Source: Octopus vulgaris
Taxonomy: Eukaryota
Direction of reading: 5' to 3'
Assembly: GCA_951406725.2 (NCBI GenBank)
Contig: OX597820.1
Location: 10,354,001-10,418,000 of the forward strand
DNA: 64,000 nucleotides
The notes beneath the pieces are model-generated. The model ran no database searches. It was not told the DNA's origin and worked only from the letters and a program-made list of their open reading frames with translations. Position numbers and translations under genes: made by a program. Below, piece by piece: positions 7,566 to 59,126 of the stretch (its first letter is position 1; every line of letters begins with the position of its first letter).

Positions 7566-8120
7566 TGCTTGCTGGAAGAGATGTTGTGTTTCGGTATATT
7601 GACACAGTCTTACATTTGTTACCGAACGTTCTGCGTAAGATACATACCCCAGGGCTAACAGCGATAACCACCGTGATCATAGAAACGGCAATAAAACCGT
7701 TTCACATGACTCGGATCGGAACGTTGGAGAATAACAGCTGAATACATTATGAAAGCAAAAAGTCAATCCGAAAGTTACATTCACTCATTCGAATCCATGG
7801 GAATTTCTATTCTCTTTCCGTATTTGATTGCTGTAGCAACCCATGTGAACCGTACCTGATATTGCATTTTAAACACGGCAAACATACAAACATAGCACCT
7901 TTTAAAATTCATCACATTCGTGTTATATCACAAGAACAAATAAGTTTACAATGCAATACGGCTAATGGTTCCCTAGAGAAACTTCCAAACATTTTCTCCT
8001 CTCGCAATCACATTCCTCAAATCAAAGATATAATAGGAGATGCGTACTGCTGAAGCGAACCCGAAACAACGCAGCTACAAAGCAAACCCTCTACACCACA
8101 CAACCATGCTTGAACCAAGA

Positions 8121-8568
8121 AGGCGGCGAGCTGGCAGAAACGTTAGCACGCCGGGCGAAATGCTTAGCGGTATTTCGTCTGCCGTTACGTTCTGAGTTCA
8201 AATTCCGCCGAGGTCGACTTTGCCTTTCATCCTTTCGAGGTCGATTAAATAAGTACCAGTTACGCATTGGGGTCGATATAACTGACTTAATCGGTTTGTC
8301 TGTCCTTGTTTGTCCTCTCTGTGTTTAGCCCCTTGTGGGTAGTAAAGAAATATGTATTTCGTCTGCCGTTACGTTCTGAGTTCAAATTCCGCCGAGGTCG
8401 ACTTTGCCTTTCATCCTTTCGGGGTCGATAAATTAAGTACCAGTTACGCACTGGGGTCGATGTAATTTTCTTATTCTCTTTGTGAAACTTTTATCGTTTA
8501 TATTTTATTATTGTCTCTCCTTGTTTGTCCCCTCTATGTTTAGCCCCTTGTGGGTAATAAAGAAATAA
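8121..8568 (+). mobile_element. SINE family A dimer
   Basis: Full unit, then a head-less unit restarting at gtatttcgtctgcc. Confidence 0.85.
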
Positions 8569-11547: not shown

Positions 11548-11592
11548 GGCCAGAGTTGTTTCGTCACACTTCTGTGACCTCATCAGTGGTCC
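11548..11592 (-). ncRNA. Type I minimal hammerhead motif
   Basis: GGaCCA-CTGATGA-g-GTCAC-agaagt-GTGAC-GAAA-caac-TC-TGGCC. Confidence 0.75.
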
Positions 11593-22579: not shown

Positions 22580-23263
22580 TACCATAACACATATATACAC
22601 ATACATACATACATACATACATACATACATACATACATACATACATACATACATACGTACATACACACATACATACATATATTCATATCACAGCCAATTT
22701 AATGCTCTAAATTAGGTCCATTAATAACGAGCTAATAGCGCAACGTTCCATAAAGTCTGATGTAGATTATATAAATCTGATATGATCGTAAAATTATACA
22801 ATACTTAGATAAATTTATTACAAATTATTATTAATTACACACACGAAACTTCAATGTTTGCCATTTTCGTAAAACATTACGCTAATAAAATGACTTTAAC
22901 ATAAACACCAGCATATATAGAAATATAGTCATCAGTCAGTCATTTAATTAGCTTCATAAAAAAGTGTTAGACTGTCTATATGCAATCCAATTTTGTATTA
23001 ACTCATTATAAAATTTAAACGACCACAGAATTATTATTCTAGAATTATGACCATCATACAAGCATGTATGCATAACTATATAAACAGTGTAAAGTAGAAT
23101 AATATGTACTAAAAGAACACTGTTGCCGATGTTATAATTTAATATCCGCTAAAGTGTTATAAACTATATAAATATAGGGCAGTAATTAATCCTGAAGAAA
23201 AGCAATGTGTTTTATTTACATTATTTACATTTGACGGATATTTGTCCATCTTGTTTATTGTTA

Positions 23264-23307
23264 ACACAACGTTTCGGCTGATATACCCTCTAGCCTTCAT
23301 TAGGTGT
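23264..23307 (-). ncRNA. Minimal hammerhead motif (core mutated to CTAATGA) in a SINE tail
   Basis: ACAC-CTAATGA-a-GGCT-agagggtatatc-AGCC-GAAA-CG-TT-GTGT. Confidence 0.7.
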
Positions 23308-23366
23308 CTTGGCGAAATTTCGAACCTGAGTTCTCATTCCTAAGGTATTTTTCGATGTTGTTGTTG

Positions 23367-23397
<31 letters not shown>

Positions 23398-23400
23398 CAT

Positions 23401-24607
23401 TCAGTAGTTTTATTTTTATAGCGTGCTTTCACTTCACTACCGAGCGCAGCTCTGTGTGCCTTAGGTATGTGCTGTGATTTGTTGTGATGCTCTGATGGTT
23501 ATTGTATGGAAAGTGTTCTGCGTAGGATGTGTGCAGTGCCTAGTAGTGCAATTTTCTGTATGTTATATGTGTTTGTAAGTCCTGGTGTTTTTGTTATGTA
23601 TTTGTCTGAATATTTTTTTATCATGCCTAATGCACCTAGTATGATAGGAATTGTTTCTGCTTTTAGATTCCACGTTCTGGTTACCTCTATTTCCAGGTCT
23701 TTGTATTTTGAAAGTTTCTCCATTTCTTTTAGAGACACGTTGTCATCTGCCGGTATTGATACATCAATTAGAAAGCATTGTTTTTCTTCATGATCTCTGA
23801 CTACTATATCTGGTCTGTTGGCCTTAATTTCTCTATCTGTGTGTATCGGCATATCCCAGAGTATGGTTGCTTTCTCGTTTTCTGTGACCTTTTCTGGTGT
23901 GTGCCTATACCATCTTTTTTCTGTTGTTATTCCATAATGTTGGCATAGCTTCCAGTGTATATAGGTTCCAACTCTGTCATGTCTGTGAATATATTTCTTC
24001 TTAGCCAGGACTGGGCAGCCAGAGATAATATGATTTATTGTTTCTTGTCCATCTCCACATATTCTGCAGTTTCTTGTTATATTTCTTTTCATTACATGTT
24101 TTTGGTAATTTCTTGTGGGCGGGGAGGCTTTGGTCTTGTGCTGCAATTAAAAATTCCCCTGTCTCTGCTTTGAGTCCTGAGCTTCTCAACCATTGCTGGG
24201 ATTTTTCTTTGTCTATTTCTTTTGCGTTTAGTTTAGTCCAGTATTTACCATGAAGGGGTTTTTCTTGCCATCGCTTTATCATGGTTCGTTGCTGTTCTAT
24301 TTTTAGTTTGGATTTCATTTGTTTTATAGCTTTTGTTGTTTCTTCTTCTTCTTCTTCTTCTTCTTCTTCTTCTTCTTCTTCTTCTTCTTCTTCTTCTTCT
24401 TCTTCTTCTTCTTCTTCTTCTTCTTCTTCTTCATATTTATTAGGTGGTATGATTTCTTGTTTGTATTTGTCAGCTTCCTTAAATACTGAGAACAGTTTTT
24501 TGTTTTGCTCGTGTTTTGCCGCTATTTGTATCAGTTTTCCTTTCTTCTGAAGTAGATATTTTTGCAGTCCTATGGTGGTTATTTTATAGTAGTTTTCCAG
24601 CTGTATA

Positions 24608-24608
<1 letters not shown>
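23401..24608 (-). mobile_element. 5'-truncated R4/Dong-like LINE (second subfamily) inserted in (TAA)n
   Basis: Reads IQLENYYKITTIGLQKYL...WQEKPLHGKY...LKAETGEFLIAAQDQSL, frameshift near 24120, then CRICGDGQETINHIISGC, RHD, RPDIVV, KYKDL, ILGALG. TAA repeats on both flanks. 3' UTR differs from the 32 kb copy. Confidence 0.92.
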
Positions 24609-24660
<52 letters not shown>

Positions 24661-24789
24661 GATGATGATGATGTTGCTACTGCCTTGCCTAATAATGGAA
24701 TCGAACTTGGAATCTTGGGGTTAGTAGCCCGCGCTCTTAGCCACTACGCCACATGCCATGTGCTCGTGGCCTAATAATACGCCAGGATT

Positions 24790-25837: not shown

Positions 25838-26104
25838 TTATATAATATTAATTCGAGACAAAACCACTATTTTGCAAAACAAACAAGGAAAGTCTTAATC
25901 AATACATAAAAATTTTAATATAAAATAAATTAAATTAAAACTTCATAAATTAAAACTGATTAGAAGATCGGAAATCCACCTGACGAATGTCATTTGAAGA
26001 CATGAAACGATTGTAGTGGCGGTTTATTTATTTTATATTAAAATTTTTATGTATTGATTAAGACTTTCCTTGTTTGTTTTGCAAAATAGTGGTTTTGTCT
26101 CGAA

Positions 26105-28425: not shown

Positions 28426-28655
28426 TATTATTATTATTGCTATTGTTATTATTATTCATGTCACAACCTAGAATCAAATTAGGAATCTTGGGTTCAGTAG
28501 CCCACGCTCTTAACCACTACGACATATGTCCGCATATGAAGGCTGGAGAATACATCAGCCGAAACAAACAAGATGAGGACAAATATCGGTCAAATGTAAT
28601 CAATGTAAATAACGTAAACAATGTACATAACTCCTCATCTCTCAAATATAGAACT
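28426..28655. mobile_element. Rearranged copy of the hammerhead SINE (minus-strand head abutting plus-strand tail)
   Basis: 28450-28531 matches head 24695-24760. 28536-28630 (atgaaggctgg..cagccgaaac..aaacaagatg) is the reverse complement of 23215-23300. Confidence 0.7.
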
Positions 28656-32286: not shown

Positions 32287-35200
32287 TTTTTTTTTTCTTC
32301 TTTCAAATTTTCTTCCATTTCTTGCCGAGTGTCTTCCCGACTCCTAGGGCAAAGAAACTCATAGTGTATATTGGTAGGCCATTAAACCAAACTCAGTAGT
32401 TCGTTCATTTTTTTTTCTTTTTTTTTTTTTAATGTTAAATTAAAATTAAAATACATGAGCAGCAACAGTTCTCACATCGACAATGCTCTTCTCAATACGT
32501 GTGATGTACCAGTTAAGACAATATTTTGCACTTCTTGCAGGGATGGTAAGCCAGGGATCATTCTCATATAATTTTCAGTTCCCTTCTTGATCATTCCTAG
32601 TGCTCCTACGATCACTGGTATTGTAACCGCCTTGAGATGCCACATTTTCTTAATTTCAATGAGTAGGTCTTTATATTTTCTGAGCTTGTCAAACTCTTTC
32701 GCTGAGATATTATGATCACAGGGGATGCTCATGTCGATCAATAAGCAAACTTTATTGTTTTGGTCTTTCACAACAATATCTGGTTTATTGGCCTTGATGG
32801 TTCGGTCTGTATGTACTGGAAAGTCCCACAGAATGGTTACATTTTCTCCTTCAGTTACAGCCTCAGGGTGGTGATTATACCACTTGTCGGCAGTTTTGAT
32901 ATTGTAATGCCGACTTATTAGCCAGTGGAGATATTGGCCAACTCTGTCATGTCTTAATTTATACTCCACTGGTGCTAAGACTTTACATCCAGAGATTAGG
33001 TGGTCCACTGTTTCAATCATGTCGTTGCAGAATCGGCATTTTGGGTCTGCTCCATTTTTCATCACATTGGCCTGGTAGTTCCGGGTTAATAGGCTTTGGT
33101 CTTGAGCAGCCAGGATGAAACCTTCGCTCTCTGCTTTTAGCCCTGAGCTCCGCAGCCACTGATGGGTTTGCTTCTGGTCAACATCAGCTTGTTTGCTGCG
33201 GGTCACATATTTGCCGTGCAGAGGTTTCTCCTCCCACCTATCAGCCAATTGCTCGTGCGCTTTTTTCATTGCCATCATTTTCACCTTCTTTGCAACAATA
33301 GTTGCCGTACTTCCCTCGGGTTGTTCAGTTTGGGTATCCTGCACGAGATCAATAGCAAATTTTTTGCTTTCCTTGATGATAGAATGAAGCTTCTTTCGTC
33401 TCTCGTGATTTTCCACGAGCTTTAGCATCCAGTCATTCGATATTTCGAGATATTTGGCCAGTCCAATTGTGGTTGTTTTGTAAGCTAGTTCAAATTGGAT
33501 CAGGCCTCGACCTCCTTGGGCTCTGGGAAGGTAAAGGCGATCTACGTCTGCCTTTGGGTGGTGCATCCTATTACAACTCAGCAGCTTGCGTATTTTTCTA
33601 TCTATATTCTTTACTTCACTCATATTCCAGTTCAACACATTGTAGCTATAAGTAACAACTGGAACTGCTAAGGAATTTATAGCTAACACCTTGTTACGTG
33701 CATTTAGTTCAGATTTCAGGACTGCACGAACTCTCCTATAACATTCCTTCCTGATTTTCTCTTTCATGCTTGCATGCTGAATACTAGAACCTTCATTTAT
33801 CCCTAAATATTTGTATGTCTGTTCTTGCTCAAGCTCTCTTATGACTGTGTCAACATCTAACACGACTGAATTTGTGGTCTTCACTTTCCCTTTCTGGAAA
33901 GTGGCCTTGGCACACTTCTCAAGTCCAAACTCCATCCCGATGTCATCGCTGAATGCTTTCACGGTGCGCAATAGGCCTTCAAGTTCATTATTGTCTTTAC
34001 CATAAAGTTTTAAGTCATCCATATAAAATAGATGGCTTATTTTTTTATTGGCAATTTTATACCCATACCCTGTTCTGTTTAATTCACTTGTAAGGGGTAT
34101 TAGGGCTATGCAGAATATTAAAGGTGAAAGTGAGTCACCTTGAAAAATTCCACAGTTGATGTTTATGTTTTCTGAGGCAAGTACTCCATTAGAGTGGTAT
34201 AATTGGAGATTCGTATTCCACAACGACATATTGTGCTTCAGGAAGTTTGAAATCACAGGGGAAATTTTAAAGATGTCCAGCGATCTCAAGATCCATGGAT
34301 GCGGTATACTGTCGAAGGCCTTTTTATAGTCAATCCATGCGGTGCTGAGATTTCTGCGCTTGTTGTGACAGTTCTCAAGGATCATACGATTGATTAGCAG
34401 TTGATCTTTGCATCCGTAAGAGCCTCGGCGGCACCCTTTTTGTTCAATGGGGAAAATATCGTTCTTCTCCATGAATGCATATGTTTTCTCCGCCAGGATA
34501 GATGTTAGGATTTTATACGTGGTGGATAGACAGGTTATAGGCCGATAGTTTTTTGGAAGGTTGGTTTCGTTATTCTTTGGGAGTAGGTAAGTAATGCCAC
34601 TTGCTAACCATTCAGGTGTTTTCTTTGGGTCTCTCAAAATTCCATTGAGCAGCTGAACTAGCTTACCGTGTGCGCACGGGAGCGATGCGAGCCAGAAATT
34701 CGGCACCCTATCTTTACCGGGGGATTTCCAATTATGGGCCTTCGTGAGTGCCTTTCTTAGGTCTGCTATTGTGATGTCTTCCCATGCTTGTTGTTGTAAA
34801 TTTTGGTAGGATCCTTCAGTTTGTATAATCCAGTCTGCATTTATGTTGTACGTCTTCTTGTCACTCCAAATCCTTTCCCAAAAGTTTTGAACTTCTTCCA
34901 TGGGAGGGGGGTCTTTAACGGTTACTTTCTCCTTCCCTATTTCTCTGTAGAATTTTTTGGCATTGGATGTGAACAGCTTATTTTGCTTGTAAAACTTGTT
35001 TCTCTTCTCAAATCTTCGTATTCTTTGGGCTTTTGCTTGGACTTTTTGTTTCAGCGTTTCTTTTATTGATATCAGTTCTTCTCTTGGTGAGGATCCAAAT
35101 TTTCTCTTCATCTTTCTTCCTGTTCTGGATCTTACATCATTTCCACATATTAGTTAATTTAATATTGATATTTCCCCTCTCATAAATTCAATCTCTTTTT

Positions 35201-36240
35201 CAATTTTACTTCTCCAGGTTTGATTTCTTCCCAGGTTTGGTTTTCTTTGTTTTTTCGGGGGCATACAGCTGGTTTCAATTGCCCTAGCAGAAGCGTAAAT
35301 AATTTCATTTAACTCAGTAAAATCAGGTTTTAATTCTTGTATTATTTCATTTGTTACATAGTTGCCAATTTGGATTTGTTTTTTATTTTGGTTTGTATTT
35401 GAGAGTTTATGAAGCGGTTTTCTATCATTCATACTTGTATGTCTTACAACTTCAAGCGTATTCAGGATTTTCTGCCTCATTTCTGCCATAGACTCTCTGT
35501 GTTCTTCAGCAAATGCGAGATCTTCAGTTACTGTTGTTTTTTCGTTTTCCTGGTTATCTTTAACAGGTACAATAGAATTTCTTGTATCTTCAGGCCTTTG
35601 CGTACTTTGGTCAGATGGCAGTCTTTCAATTAAGCCTCGTGGCGGGCTATACTGTTCATCTGATTCTTCATTTCCTTTGTGTCTTATATTTATGTCATTT
35701 TCCGTTGCGTGCTTGATCGCACTTATTTCACTGTCTGTGAGTCTGTTATTTCTAAAGATATCCCTCCTCACATTTGCTAATTTGTTCTCGTCCAAATAGG
35801 GCCTACTGTCTTGATTCCGTGTTCTCCATATACTGTAAGAGTTTGCGGTGTGTCTCTCTTGAGATGGCCTACCTAATGCATAGTAATAAGCGTATATTAC
35901 TTCTTTATACTCTTCTCGGGTCCATTTGTTCCGCTTACATTTTTCTTTCTGTGGTGGTTGTGGTGGTGAACTTGGAGGGCTCGAGTTGGGGGATTTCCCG
36001 TTCAAGTGACCATCCATGTCCGTATTCGGAGAAGAGTTTGTGCCAGTTGATGACTTTTCGATCCCAGGCTGGCTCTTCCCTGGGGGACGCGCTTCCAGAT
36101 TAACCATAGGACAAGCGATTTGGTATACTGATTTAGTTTTCCTTTTAGTTTCCAAAAACATTTTGGTGCTACGATAATGTTATCATTTTTTAGCTTTGAT
36201 TGGCTCGTGGGGAGACGGCCATCATTACCGTTACAATTAT
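32286..36240 (-). mobile_element. Near full-length R4/Dong-like non-LTR retrotransposon (RT + restriction-like endonuclease)
   Basis: Long RT-REL ORF. 3' UTR 32471-32286 ends in an A-run joined to (TAA)n at 32222-32285. Further TAA-rich repeats lie upstream (36494-36632). The 5' boundary is approximate. Confidence 0.9.
32472..36161 (-). pseudogene. R4/Dong-type polyprotein (N-terminal domain, reverse transcriptase, CCHC knuckle, REL endonuclease), 1230 codons with one in-frame TAA at 35154-35156
   Basis: ORFs 35154..36161 and 32472..35111 share a frame and read EISILN*LICGNDVRSRTGRKMKRKF. Motifs: KSPGKD, YRPITCL, EQKGC, WIDYKKAFDSI, QGDSLSP, YMDDLK, YKYLG, CRFC..ETVDHLISGC, RHD, KPDIVV..LIDMSIP, KYKDL, PVIVGALG. 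Confidence 0.93.
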
Positions 36241-36279
36241 AATCGTACCATTATAGCAGCCGTAGTCGGCTTATTATTG

Positions 36280-36492
36280 TTATTATCTTCACCATTACCA
36301 TCACTATCATCATTATCACCACCATTACCATCATCATCATCCATCACCATCACCACCATCATCATCAATGATATTGTTTTATGTGTAGTCACAGCAGTAT
36401 CTTATTATTGTTATTTTTGTTTTTTTATCATTATCACCATCACAATAGTGTCTGTCTGTCTCGTTGGCTGGCTTGGTGGTTGGCTGGCTGAC

Positions 36493-49349: not shown

Positions 49350-50145
49350 GGCAGCGAGCTGGCAGAATCCTCAGCACGCCGTCTTTACGTCCGTCATTAC
49401 GTTCTGAGTTCAAATTCTACCGAGGTCGACTCTGCCTTTTATCCTTCGGGGGTCGATAACTTAAATACCAGTTGCGTACTGGGATCGATCTAATCGACTG
49501 GCTCCCGTCCTAATAATTTCAGGCCTTGTGCCTAGAGTAGAAAAGAATATCTAGGTGTCTGTAAGGCGGCGAACTGGCAGAAACATTAGTACGCCGGGCG
49601 AAATCCTTAGCAGCATTTTGACTGTCACTGCATTCTGAGTTCAAATTCCGTCGAGGTCCACTTTGCCCTTCATCCTTTCGGGGTCGATAAATTAAGTACC
49701 AGTTACGCACTGGGTTAGATGTAATCGACTTCATCTTTTTGTCTGTCCTTGTTTGTCCCCTCTGTGTTTAGCCCCTTGTGGGTAGTAAAGAAATAGGTAT
49801 TTCGTCTGCCGCTACGTTCTGAGTTCAAGTTCCGCCGAGGTCGACTTTGCCTTTCATCCTTTCGGGGTCGATAAATTAAGTACCAGTTACGCACTGGGGT
49901 CGATATAATCGACTTAGTCCGTTTGTCTGTCCTTGTTTGTCCTCTTTGTGTTTAGCCCCTTGAGTGTAGTAAAGAAATAGGTATTTCGTCTGCTGCTACG
50001 TTCTGAGTTCAAATTCCGCCGAGGTCGACTTTGCCTTTCATCCTTTCGGAGTCGATAAATTAAGTACCAGTTACGCACTGGGGTCTATGTTATCATCTAT
50101 CCCCTTCCCCCAAATTTCAGGCATTGTGCCTAGACCAAAAAAGAA
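49350..50145 (+). mobile_element. SINE family A tetramer
   Basis: Four cores; attatttgttgcta on both flanks. Confidence 0.88.
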
Positions 50146-54606: not shown

Positions 54607-54625
54607 GGTATTACCAAGTCCTGAA

Positions 54626-54945
54626 GCTGCGTGGCTTAGTGGCTAGGGTATTCGGTTCGCGACCGCATGGATGCGAGTTCGATTCCCGGCGGCCTGGTGT
54701 GTCCTTGAGCAAGACACTTTATTTCACATTGCTCCAGTCCACTCAGCTGGCAAAAATGAGTAGTACCTATATTTCAAGGGGTCAACCTTGTCACACTCTG
54801 TGTCACGCTGTATCTCCTTGAGAAGTATGTGAAGATGAACGCGTGTCTTTGGAGTGCTCAGCCACTTGCACGTTAATCTCTCGAGCAAGCTGTTCCTTTA
54901 ATCAGATCAACTGGAACCCTCGTCGTCGTAAGCGACGGAGTGCCA
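54626..54945 (+). mobile_element. tRNA-SINE with V/CORE-like domain and family B tail
   Basis: A box TGGCTTAGTGG, B box GTTCGATTCC, gtgtccttgagcaagacact. Related minus-strand copies at ~42050-42370 and ~61905-62243. Confidence 0.8.
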
Positions 54946-58216: not shown

Positions 58217-58744
58217 TAGTGGCTGTATACTGTCAACATAACGTGACAGTCCCATATATTATATATATACTTGGATTGTACCAGCAGACCAGGATGTTTG
58301 ACATCTCTTTGAAGGATTTCGGTTCTCACCTTACACCTCATTTCTATATATATATATATGTTATCTTCGAGGCAAAATCAAAACCAAAGCAGAACAAGTA
58401 TATGAAATCATTTATAATAAGTTAATTAGGGTAAGGTGAATTTGAAATCTTACAGCTATTCGGAAACTTATTTACAGCCTTGGATTTTTTTTTTTATCTC
58501 ATTCTGTCAATTAATATAATATGCATGCTAATACATGGCCCACGTTGGACTCCTCACTCGTATCATTATCGAACCTGGAATTTAAATATGGTCTATCCAT
58601 AGCACTTACATAGCGTTACCCGACAGCTTTTGGGTCTTCTTTACATCCATACTGCACATACCTTCAGATCGCTATGTTGAATCGCTAGCTTCTGCACGCA
58701 TTTTTTTTCTCTCCTTGTTTCTCTCTGTGTTTCTTTTCTGTGTA

Positions 58745-58782
58745 TCTTTCTGTTGAAGAGCGTAGGCTCGAAACGTAAAAGA
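58745..58782 (+). ncRNA. Minimal hammerhead motif (core variant CTGTTGA)
   Basis: TCTTT-CTGTTGA-a-GAGC-gtag-GCTC-GAAA-CG-TA-AAAGA. Confidence 0.65.
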
Positions 58783-58878
58783 CTTGTTTTATTTATATTC
58801 CTGAGCGCCATACTAATACAATTCTTTGTTTGTACTCCACCTGCCTTCGTCGTTTGTTTATTTTCATAAAGCTTCCCG

Positions 58879-58910
<32 letters not shown>

Positions 58911-58999
58911 GGAGAATTCACGAAAAAACGCAAAAGACAAAGACCGGTGGTGTAGACAACAAACAGATGTATTATTTTAATGCTCAGGAAGTGAAAAAG

Positions 59000-59037
59000 T
59001 CTTCAACGTTTCGAGCCTTCGCTCTTCCTCAGAAAGG
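59000..59037 (-). ncRNA. Minimal hammerhead motif, inverted partner of 58745-58782
   Basis: ccttt-CTGAGGA-a-GAGC-gaag-GCTC-GAAA-CG-TT-gaaga. Confidence 0.65.
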
Positions 59038-59126
59038 AACACAGGAAGAAACAAGGAGAGAAAATATAGAATGTTTTGTGGCTAGCGATCTATCATGGCG
59101 AATCTGTCTATCTGACTGTCTGTCTG

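Follow-up and report, generated by a model that had tools for sequence, protein, structure and literature searches.

Results

Anatomy of the locus

The window analysed here is a 64,000-nucleotide stretch of Octopus vulgaris DNA (GenBank assembly GCA_951406725.2, contig OX597820.1, forward-strand positions 10,354,001 to 10,418,000). At 23212..24770, its minus strand holds a repeat with a tRNA-derived head, an AAT-rich spacer split by a later insertion, and a tail with a hammerhead ribozyme. An earlier interpretation, the sequence-only reading, had taken this repeat for a tRNA-derived short interspersed element (SINE) mobilised by a Penelope-like element (PLE). Our results indicate that head, spacer and tail together are the pseudo-long terminal repeat (pseudo-LTR) of a decayed Penelope/Poseidon retrotransposon, which itself carries the tRNA head behind its open reading frame (ORF). 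The parts of the unit are listed below; promoter boxes, spacer and ribozyme were assigned by sequence, and the later insertion is a long interspersed element (LINE) of the restriction-like endonuclease (RLE) type. Papers cited by PMC number, except PMC4824008, and the bioRxiv preprint are cited for excerpts.

24696..24770, minus strand: tRNA-Arg(ACG)-derived head, 5' boundary of the pseudo-LTR; 95% identical over 62 nt to a natural near-majority copy
24741..24751, minus strand: A box
24697..24706, minus strand: B box
24609..24695, minus strand: variant segment and left part of the spacer, (ATC)n(AAT)n
23401..24608, minus strand: later insertion, a 5'-truncated, frameshifted RLE-type LINE with a (GAA)n expansion, recognised by translation and a zf-RVT match
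23356..23400, minus strand: right part of the spacer, (AAT)n(AAC)n
23212..23355, minus strand: tail, comprising the 3' part of the pseudo-LTR and the 5' coding region of the Penelope ORF; 94% identical to a natural copy
23335..23337, minus strand: putative ORF start codon, in frame through the ribozyme (open frame in locus L217; match to protein P0004)
23264..23308, minus strand: minimal type I hammerhead with mutated core (family core counts; architecture as in PMC4209133)

With the LINE removed, about 350 bp remain, and the A and B boxes, AAT/AAC spacer and hammerhead tail reported earlier were all found on the minus strand. The tail (23212-23355) stops at a short end, near tail position 146, and has no 45-nt extension. 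As had also been reported, the ribozyme core of this copy is mutated; it reads CTAATGA at 23297-23303 (G5 to A), outside the CUGANGA consensus, and cleavage is predicted after GUU at 23268. The last ~13 nt of the head are a rare variant that occurs at only 2 places in the genome.

The translated insertion at 23401-24608 shows a zinc knuckle and a PD..D nuclease, with a zf-RVT match at E 2e-4. We take it to be Dong/R4-like, from a motif and its TAA target. Among 106 other loci of the tRNA-headed family, 5 also contain its 3' end. At 32290-36480 on the minus strand, between TAA tracts, lies an RLE-type LINE of nearly full length that is 64% identical to this insertion and whose 3' end occurs in 4 of the 106 loci. 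The AAT spacer of the family is thus a landing pad for at least two RLE-type LINE families.

The unit belongs to an autonomous Penelope/Poseidon element

A Penelope/Poseidon motif pattern for reverse transcriptase (RT) had 119 matches in the genome and 0 in the control. Among 30 matches that were fetched, head or tail lay downstream on the same strand in 23, and both in 14. We then examined 40 ORF-bearing loci, of which 37 were among the best protein matches and 3 were picked for an upstream repeat. The ORF was followed by head and then tail in 28 of them, by the head only in 3, by the tail only in 2 and by neither in 7. The head starts 23 nt behind the stop codon. Because the autonomous element itself carries the head at this position, head, (AAT)n spacer and hammerhead tail are the pseudo-LTR of the element. 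A direct upstream copy of the pseudo-LTR, at least in part, was present in 5 of the 40 loci, including the 3 picked for it, and locus L179 has the whole head and tail unit.

The tail also leads into the coding region. Positions 146-192 of the tail are the first stretch of the element body, and the tail runs into the ORF in loci L162, L176, L178 and L180. A frame that opens with an ATG within the tail continues across the ribozyme and enters the ORF; in L217 it is open for 54 codons. The peptide encoded there, TPD-G..PKRCVNN, matches the N-terminus of a distant relative, P0004, at 12 of 20 positions (E 2e-5); overall, P0004 is 55% identical to the family protein. The earlier expectation that the tail should match the end of an autonomous PLE was right insofar as the tail follows the ORF, but the tail encodes the ORF N-terminus as well and the head is part of the same element. 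The proposal of a SINE head joined to the 3' end of a partner is not supported in that form.

The family protein is a single ORF with a PLE-type RT and, at the C-terminus, a GIY-YIG nuclease with CCHH residues, the arrangement by which PLEs are recognised. RVT_1 matched at E 2.7e-6, and a profile match to a GIY-YIG-bearing PLE spans both RT and nuclease (probability 100), while the Pfam GIY-YIG model gave no match in 14 aligned members. The closest relatives (55-68% identity) are unnamed or 'uncharacterized'. There is no zinc-finger linker between RT and nuclease, as the alignment shows no residues where the Neptune-type protein P0001 has its Cys-rich linker; this linker is present in Neptune/Nematis (PMC8557442). 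All 150 scored ORF copies are decayed, and the longest open frame has 569 aa. Together with the end positions described below, these results support mobilisation by Penelope-type RT/GIY-YIG machinery, and we regard the Penelope origin and mobilisation of the unit as nearly certain.

Distant relatives were found at 80 metagenome loci (29-45% identity), of which 44 were examined for head and hammerhead. None of the 44 has a tRNA head behind the ORF (one showed a weak B-box-like match), and 18 have a hammerhead-like motif there. A search of viral contigs found no relative.

Other Penelope-type elements occur in the same genome. A Neptune-type family found, together with relatives, by a GIY-YIG search was considered as partner and rejected, with the tail behind the ORF in 0 of 50 fetched stretches. 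This family (L091-L098, e.g. L091:2245-4587) is very young: it has many open frames of 781 aa and pseudo-LTRs that are 99-100% identical, and a further open frame, of up to 479 aa, overlaps upstream. Its minimal hammerhead is a variant with U3-A8, its optional tail has ~33 nt, and it inserts in (AT)n. A rarer second Penelope-type RT motif, GVAMGSPLGP, lies at L137:1501-1529, outside the tRNA-headed family.

Family size and co-linearity of head and tail

Exact matches were counted in the 2.8-Gb assembly (~30 large contigs). A pattern of 20 fixed letters around the ribozyme core had 7076 matches and a 20-mer of the head 5148, with 0 for both reversed controls. Since copies are ~94% identical to the column majority, the 7076 exact matches suggest ~24,000 ribozyme-bearing units. 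Short units exceed ORF-linked units about 5 to 1 in exact 20-letter counts. The short form is below 1 kb, interspersed and present in far more than 100 copies, in the range that SINEBase sets for SINEs.

Head and tail are co-linear in most copies, as anticipated from the window alone. The head lay upstream in 23 of 29 loci picked as best tail matches, and the tail downstream in 23 of 29 picked as best head matches. A third sample was chosen by ribozyme flanks alone, from 50 anchors in the first 8.6 Mb of one contig; two insertions were matched twice, leaving 48 insertions. Of these, 32 have a co-linear unit and 16 have no head.

Head and ribozyme

The family head is identical to a genomic tRNA-Arg(ACG) gene in 45 of 63 columns (71%), above the SINEBase threshold of 60% tRNA identity over 60 nt. 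The alignment score was 68, against a maximum of 52 in 1000 shuffles; the comparison covered tRNA-Arg(ACG) and one Ala-like sequence. Position +1 of the tRNA corresponds to head position 7. The promoter boxes are kept and the cloverleaf is lost; ARAGORN did not call the head, and Rfam gave no tRNA or hammerhead match on a clean copy, nor among the 150 listed of 336 window matches. Processing by RNase P was rated low as an origin of the 5' end, because the acceptor and T stems are decayed. In the same genome, 24 tRNA-Arg(ACG)-like matches are clustered within 20 kb at G000:C2:211887730-211907133.

Among the first 100 listed copies of the ribozyme, 60 have the core CTGATGA, 16 CTGAAGA, 5 CTGACGA and 1 CTGAGGA, so that 82 keep CUGANGA. 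The family also has the GAAA core, an extra base after A9 (between 9 and 10.1), the pair G10.1-C11.1, and a palindromic AACGUU (15.2-16.2) in place of stem III. It thus shows the features listed for minimal type I hammerheads in the excerpts of PMC4209133, although the core of the window copy does not; both the CTGATGA family core and the palindromic stem III had been predicted. An unconstrained fold of the monomer did not form the ribozyme. Core position N7 varies in 24 of 100 copies, compared with 0-7 at the other six core positions; as a sign of selection on cleavage this was given little weight, for other non-CpG columns vary nearly as much.

Integration marks

Tail-out inverted pairs make up 30 of the 48 insertions. 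The ~45-nt extension is present at exactly one end in 27 of the 30, at neither end in 3 and at both ends in none, whereas ~6 long/long pairs are expected if the ends are independent. Flanking repeats of at least 7 nt surround 24 of 57 inverted pairs, all loci pooled, versus 3.9% in mismatched controls, and 5 of 21 single units versus 5% in the control; the duplication around such pairs is 7-14 bp. Direct tandem tails were found in 3 of the 48 (L202 in part, L224, L225). Moreover, the two arms of a pair share rare tail variants more often than shuffled pairs do (0.0038 vs 0.0014), and heads show no such excess.

Partial tandems (5/40), inverted 5' copies (30/48), one-sided tails (27/30) and a hammerhead that overlaps the ORF start are all marks of PLEs. 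The excerpts describe inverted pairs with one-ended tails for PLE insertions (PMC8557442), and 8-10-bp duplications around inverted pseudo-LTRs in rotifer Penelopes (PMC3846280). For Poseidon of Anolis carolinensis, biochemistry in vitro showed that both strands are nicked and extended, that two internal priming sites just inside the ORF define the tail, and that RNA is needed to ORF +172 while ribozyme cleavage is not (PMC11167929). By analogy, the two end positions of the tRNA-headed family fit the two Poseidon priming sites. Loci L004, L051, L057, L058, L167 and L209 have an inverted arm of only ~tail 136-151 to 192, and in most the forward arm ends near 146; use of the two priming sites on a single RNA would be expected to give this layout.

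The sequence-only reading had named three outcomes that would tell against it: independent occurrence of head and tail, a family without CUGANGA, and a LINE-type tail. Co-linearity, core counts and PLE-type ends show the opposite in each case. Chance adjacency in TAA repeats, or a conventional SINE mobilised by a LINE, might draw on the 16 headless insertions and on a spacer that collects later insertions. However, head and tail are co-linear, the tail is identical with the Penelope ORF start, the 3' end has neither poly(A) nor a simple repeat, and inverted pairs are tail-out with a one-sided extension, so these explanations can practically be dismissed.

5' ends, T runs and transcripts

Exact 20-letter counts rise from 668 at -120 and 1024 at -31, relative to the head, to 5148 at head +36 and 7076 at the ribozyme. 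The step is 5.0-fold across the 5' edge of the head in 67 nt, versus 1.5-fold in the preceding 89 nt and 1.4-fold over at least 130 nt after head +36. Of 41 head-bearing units in the 48-insertion sample, 23 end at head -4..+12, 9 at 13-29 and 3 later; in 5 the end lies at -7..-17, in what remains of a short palindrome, and 1 continues into the ORF.

No position of the 2.6-kb sense strand has TTTT in a quarter of the copies. By comparison, the same genome has 9 such runs in a Neptune ORF and 8 in a LINE. Each of the 49 open frames from distant Penelopes has at least one TTTT, and the 17 of at least 2 kb hold 4-21 each, some of them being near duplicates. Two distant relatives without T runs in the matched part have them elsewhere in the ORF, and neither gave an Rfam match. 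The pile-up of 5' ends and the lack of T runs together suggest that RNA polymerase III (Pol III) may start at the head and read through the ORF.

Two raw RNA runs gave 11,645 and 8,911 reads on a full-length copy, equally on both strands, from a library blind to strand and to short Pol III RNA. In these reads, 71-76% continue into unrelated sequence, and neither starts nor ends pile up at head or ribozyme, as far as a library blind to short Pol III RNA can show. In a search of sequencing runs, 20 of 24 entries contained at least half of the search words, under 5 organism labels and from 10 studies, with no RNA run among those listed. The two raw RNA runs came from one of these labels, and contigs of two other organism labels cover all 30 bins of the full-length copy.

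Second locus and other repeats in the window

Head and tail also adjoin at 28426-28655, as the sequence-only reading had stated, but they do not form the second co-linear copy that it implied.

28426..28531, minus strand: left arm, inverted head and AAT spacer, 85% identical to a natural copy
28536..28655, plus strand: right arm, 5'-truncated tail with a long end and an incomplete ribozyme

The arms stand back to back on opposite strands, and the right-arm tail lacks the start of the core and stems I and III; the locus is an inverted junction.

Several other repeats were seen in the window. At 58640-59100, two copies of another hammerhead repeat lie in opposite orientation, with mutated cores at 58750 (plus) and 59032 (minus); the repeat also adjoins several fetched loci and is probably another abundant end of Penelope type. 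Two more hammerhead-like motifs, which differ in sequence, are present at 11586 (minus), with an intact core, and at 25980 (plus). Between 2175 and 54720 there are at least 14 copies of an abundant SINE-like family with internal 184-bp tandem repeats (e.g. 8120-8480 and 49563-50094). The sole ARAGORN call in the window, a tRNA-Ala at 54624-54696, abuts one copy of this family and resembles another repeat head.

Discussion

The observation is real: a Penelope/Poseidon element whose pseudo-LTR has a tRNA-derived head has left a swarm of short, SINE-like copies. We consider it probable that the tRNA-Arg head of this pseudo-LTR is a Pol III promoter, and that most cDNAs of the decayed family run off as ~300-bp copies. 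According to this model, the pseudo-LTR gained a tRNA-Arg-derived promoter at its 5' edge by capture, and Pol III would start at the head of an upstream pseudo-LTR and could read through the ORF. As Poseidon biochemistry suggests (PMC11167929), the PLE protein would bind the RNA just inside the ORF, nick both DNA strands and prime at two internal sites, corresponding in the octopus to about tail positions 146 and 192. A cDNA primed at the first junction would run for ~300 nt to the 5' end of the RNA and yield a short, often paired copy. A cDNA primed at a downstream junction, available through a tandem source, circularised RNA or a template jump, would give an ORF-bearing copy. Most short copies would then be by-products that lead no further. 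Cleavage by the ribozyme is predicted to depend on a dimer or the protein, and insertion may not require it. More tentatively, and with somewhat less than even confidence, we propose that the element is an autonomous retrotransposon transcribed by Pol III from end to end, with terminators purged from its 2.6-kb sense strand, and that its run-off cDNAs form a SINE-like family born inside its own partner and not by fusion of a tRNA to the tail of a partner.

Several observations weigh against this model. Only 1 of 41 sampled units runs into the ORF, fewer than the ~1 in 5 implied by genome counts; the 48-insertion sample is therefore not representative, and motif counts, in turn, are confounded by unequal mutability. 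The lack of TTTT is moderate (p ~0.06 under a first-order Markov model), GGGG runs are absent too, the first 600 nt are covered by only 5-9 copies, and of 4 decayed natural frames only 1 fell below 0.05 in a synonymous-codon shuffle. A Pol III start at the head, which we think rather likely, is a reading of promoter boxes, 5' ends and T runs, and the model does not account for translation of an uncapped Pol III RNA. All 150 scored ORF copies being decayed is a further point on this side.

The same 5' boundary of the head also has a short imperfect palindrome, and this is the starting point of a rival explanation, which we think unlikely. In ordinary 5' truncation of a Penelope, the tRNA piece would be a passenger behind the ORF, the RNA would come from a Pol II promoter or from read-through, and cDNA synthesis would stop or fold back at the head palindrome. 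Many junctions are indeed head-to-head fold-backs, and palindromes at the pseudo-LTR 5' ends of tRNA-free rotifer Penelopes have been read as self-priming in the excerpts of PMC3846280. Moreover, the promoter of Penelope in D. virilis resembles TATA-less LINE promoters in the portions cited of PMC2377424. However, units end at head 1-10 even where there is no partner arm or where that arm starts within the tail, and fold-back does not account for these. A hairpin should also halt RT at the 3' foot of its stem and not at the 5' side, and the palindrome's left arm repeats the tRNA 5' end in inverted form, as if it had been produced from RNA begun there. Truncation leaves the missing T runs unexplained, and in the tRNA-free Neptune family pseudo-LTR length varies (299, 456 and 504 nt in 3 copies).

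Another explanation is a true Penelope-dependent SINE, in which short copies are Pol III source genes of their own, copied in trans, and ORF-linked heads record the origin of the SINE from the autonomous element or its capture by it. The excess of short units is what a SINE would give, each short unit holds promoter boxes, ribozyme and at least one priming site, and one head variant is common to two unlinked short insertions only. In rotifers, pseudo-LTRs suffice in cis for mobilisation in trans, according to the excerpts of PMC3846280. However, 38 short and 28 ORF-linked heads revealed no diagnostic variant specific to short units, the two groups have the same divergence (median 0.927 in both), and a G/A dimorphism of the head is alike in both (13:8 in ORF-linked and 23:14 in short heads). 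The RNA that Anolis Poseidon needs, to ORF +172 (PMC11167929), extends past the priming sites where short copies end, and rare tail variants shared within pairs point to one source per insertion, though heads give no such sign. We therefore regard a true SINE as quite improbable.

The family can be placed among known systems. Like Poseidon of Anolis (PMC11167929) and Penelope of D. virilis (PMC2377424), it has a single RT and C-terminal GIY-YIG ORF without the Neptune zinc linker. As in other Penelope/Poseidon PLEs, the hammerhead overlaps the ORF start, two end positions define an optional tail, and inverted 5' copies and short target duplications around inverted pairs occur (PMC3846280, PMC8557442). 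Unlike these elements, the octopus pseudo-LTR opens with a tRNA-derived A/B-box head and an AAT microsatellite, and its extension is ~45 nt instead of the 30-40 described. The Penelope promoter described so far in the excerpts, TATA-less and LINE-like (PMC2377424), also differs from this head.

The nearest precedent is Sm-alpha, which like Sj-alpha of schistosomes is described as a short repeat where a Pol III-type promoter precedes a type I hammerhead (PMC6765202, PMC8490949). The combination of Pol III head and hammerhead has thus been seen before; for its link to a PLE, the literature that we searched gave no precedent. Sm-alpha and Sj-alpha are described as arranged in tandem and as having their promoter at the 3' end of the cleaved unit, and the cited descriptions name no partner. 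In the octopus, copies occur as dispersed inverted pairs, and an identified autonomous element contains the unit. Animal non-LTR retrozymes (bioRxiv 10.64898/2026.07.22.740005) are likewise short, with a type I hammerhead related to PLE pseudo-LTRs, but are head-to-tail tandems, and the cited parts of the preprint have 0 mentions of tRNA or promoter. The octopus family, with 3 direct tandem tails versus 30 inverted pairs among 48 insertions, does not show the two or more head-to-tail units with intact ribozymes of a retrozyme. Cassandra, Helenus and Ajax (PMC10886601) also have a Pol III-type small-RNA sequence inside a terminal repeat, but they are non-autonomous LTR elements with a primer-binding site and a polypurine tract, whereas the octopus repeat belongs to a protein-coding PLE.

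Among SINEs, the tRNA-derived ones (PMC3531059) are short, interspersed, present in thousands of copies and have heads more than 60% identical to tRNA, all of which is true of the short octopus units. Unlike SINEs, these units have no LINE-derived 3' end or simple-repeat tail, show Penelope-type integration, and have the sequence of the terminal repeat of an autonomous element. SINEBase further describes SINEs as non-autonomous, with a LINE partner and a simple-repeat tail; here the machinery is that of a PLE and the unit is part of it. In its workings the element resembles a SINE mobilised by Penelope, but the SINE definition demands an independence from the partner that it lacks. The octopus SINEs OK, OR1 and OR2 were reportedly described by Ohshima and Okada in 1994. 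OR1 is a CORE-SINE (PMC4824008). The short form may already be catalogued as a SINE, for instance as OK or OR2. The available parts of two octopus repeat surveys describe no such element, and our literature search, with Repbase, Dfam, SINEBase tables and most subscription papers outside it, found no PLE with a tRNA-derived pseudo-LTR and no tRNA SINE mobilised by a PLE.

Our results also bear on the biology of retroelements in a wider sense. Short copies inserted by the thousand with one end long and the other short form an extensive in vivo record of the two-site priming that was demonstrated in vitro for Poseidon, and the family suggests where the missing partner of Sm-alpha might be sought. 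If Pol III does make the full-length RNA, the question of its translation would link the element to R2, where a ribozyme likewise releases the RNA from a transcript not made by Pol II (PMC6765202, PMC2377424, in the parts cited). The findings suggest that some repeats annotated as SINEs may be Penelope terminal repeats. SINEs are defined as parasites of LINEs, and to our knowledge Pol III has been taken to serve only the non-autonomous partner. A Penelope that carries a tRNA head, and whose SINE-like copies bear Penelope marks, offers a concrete and testable route for the origin of SINEs.

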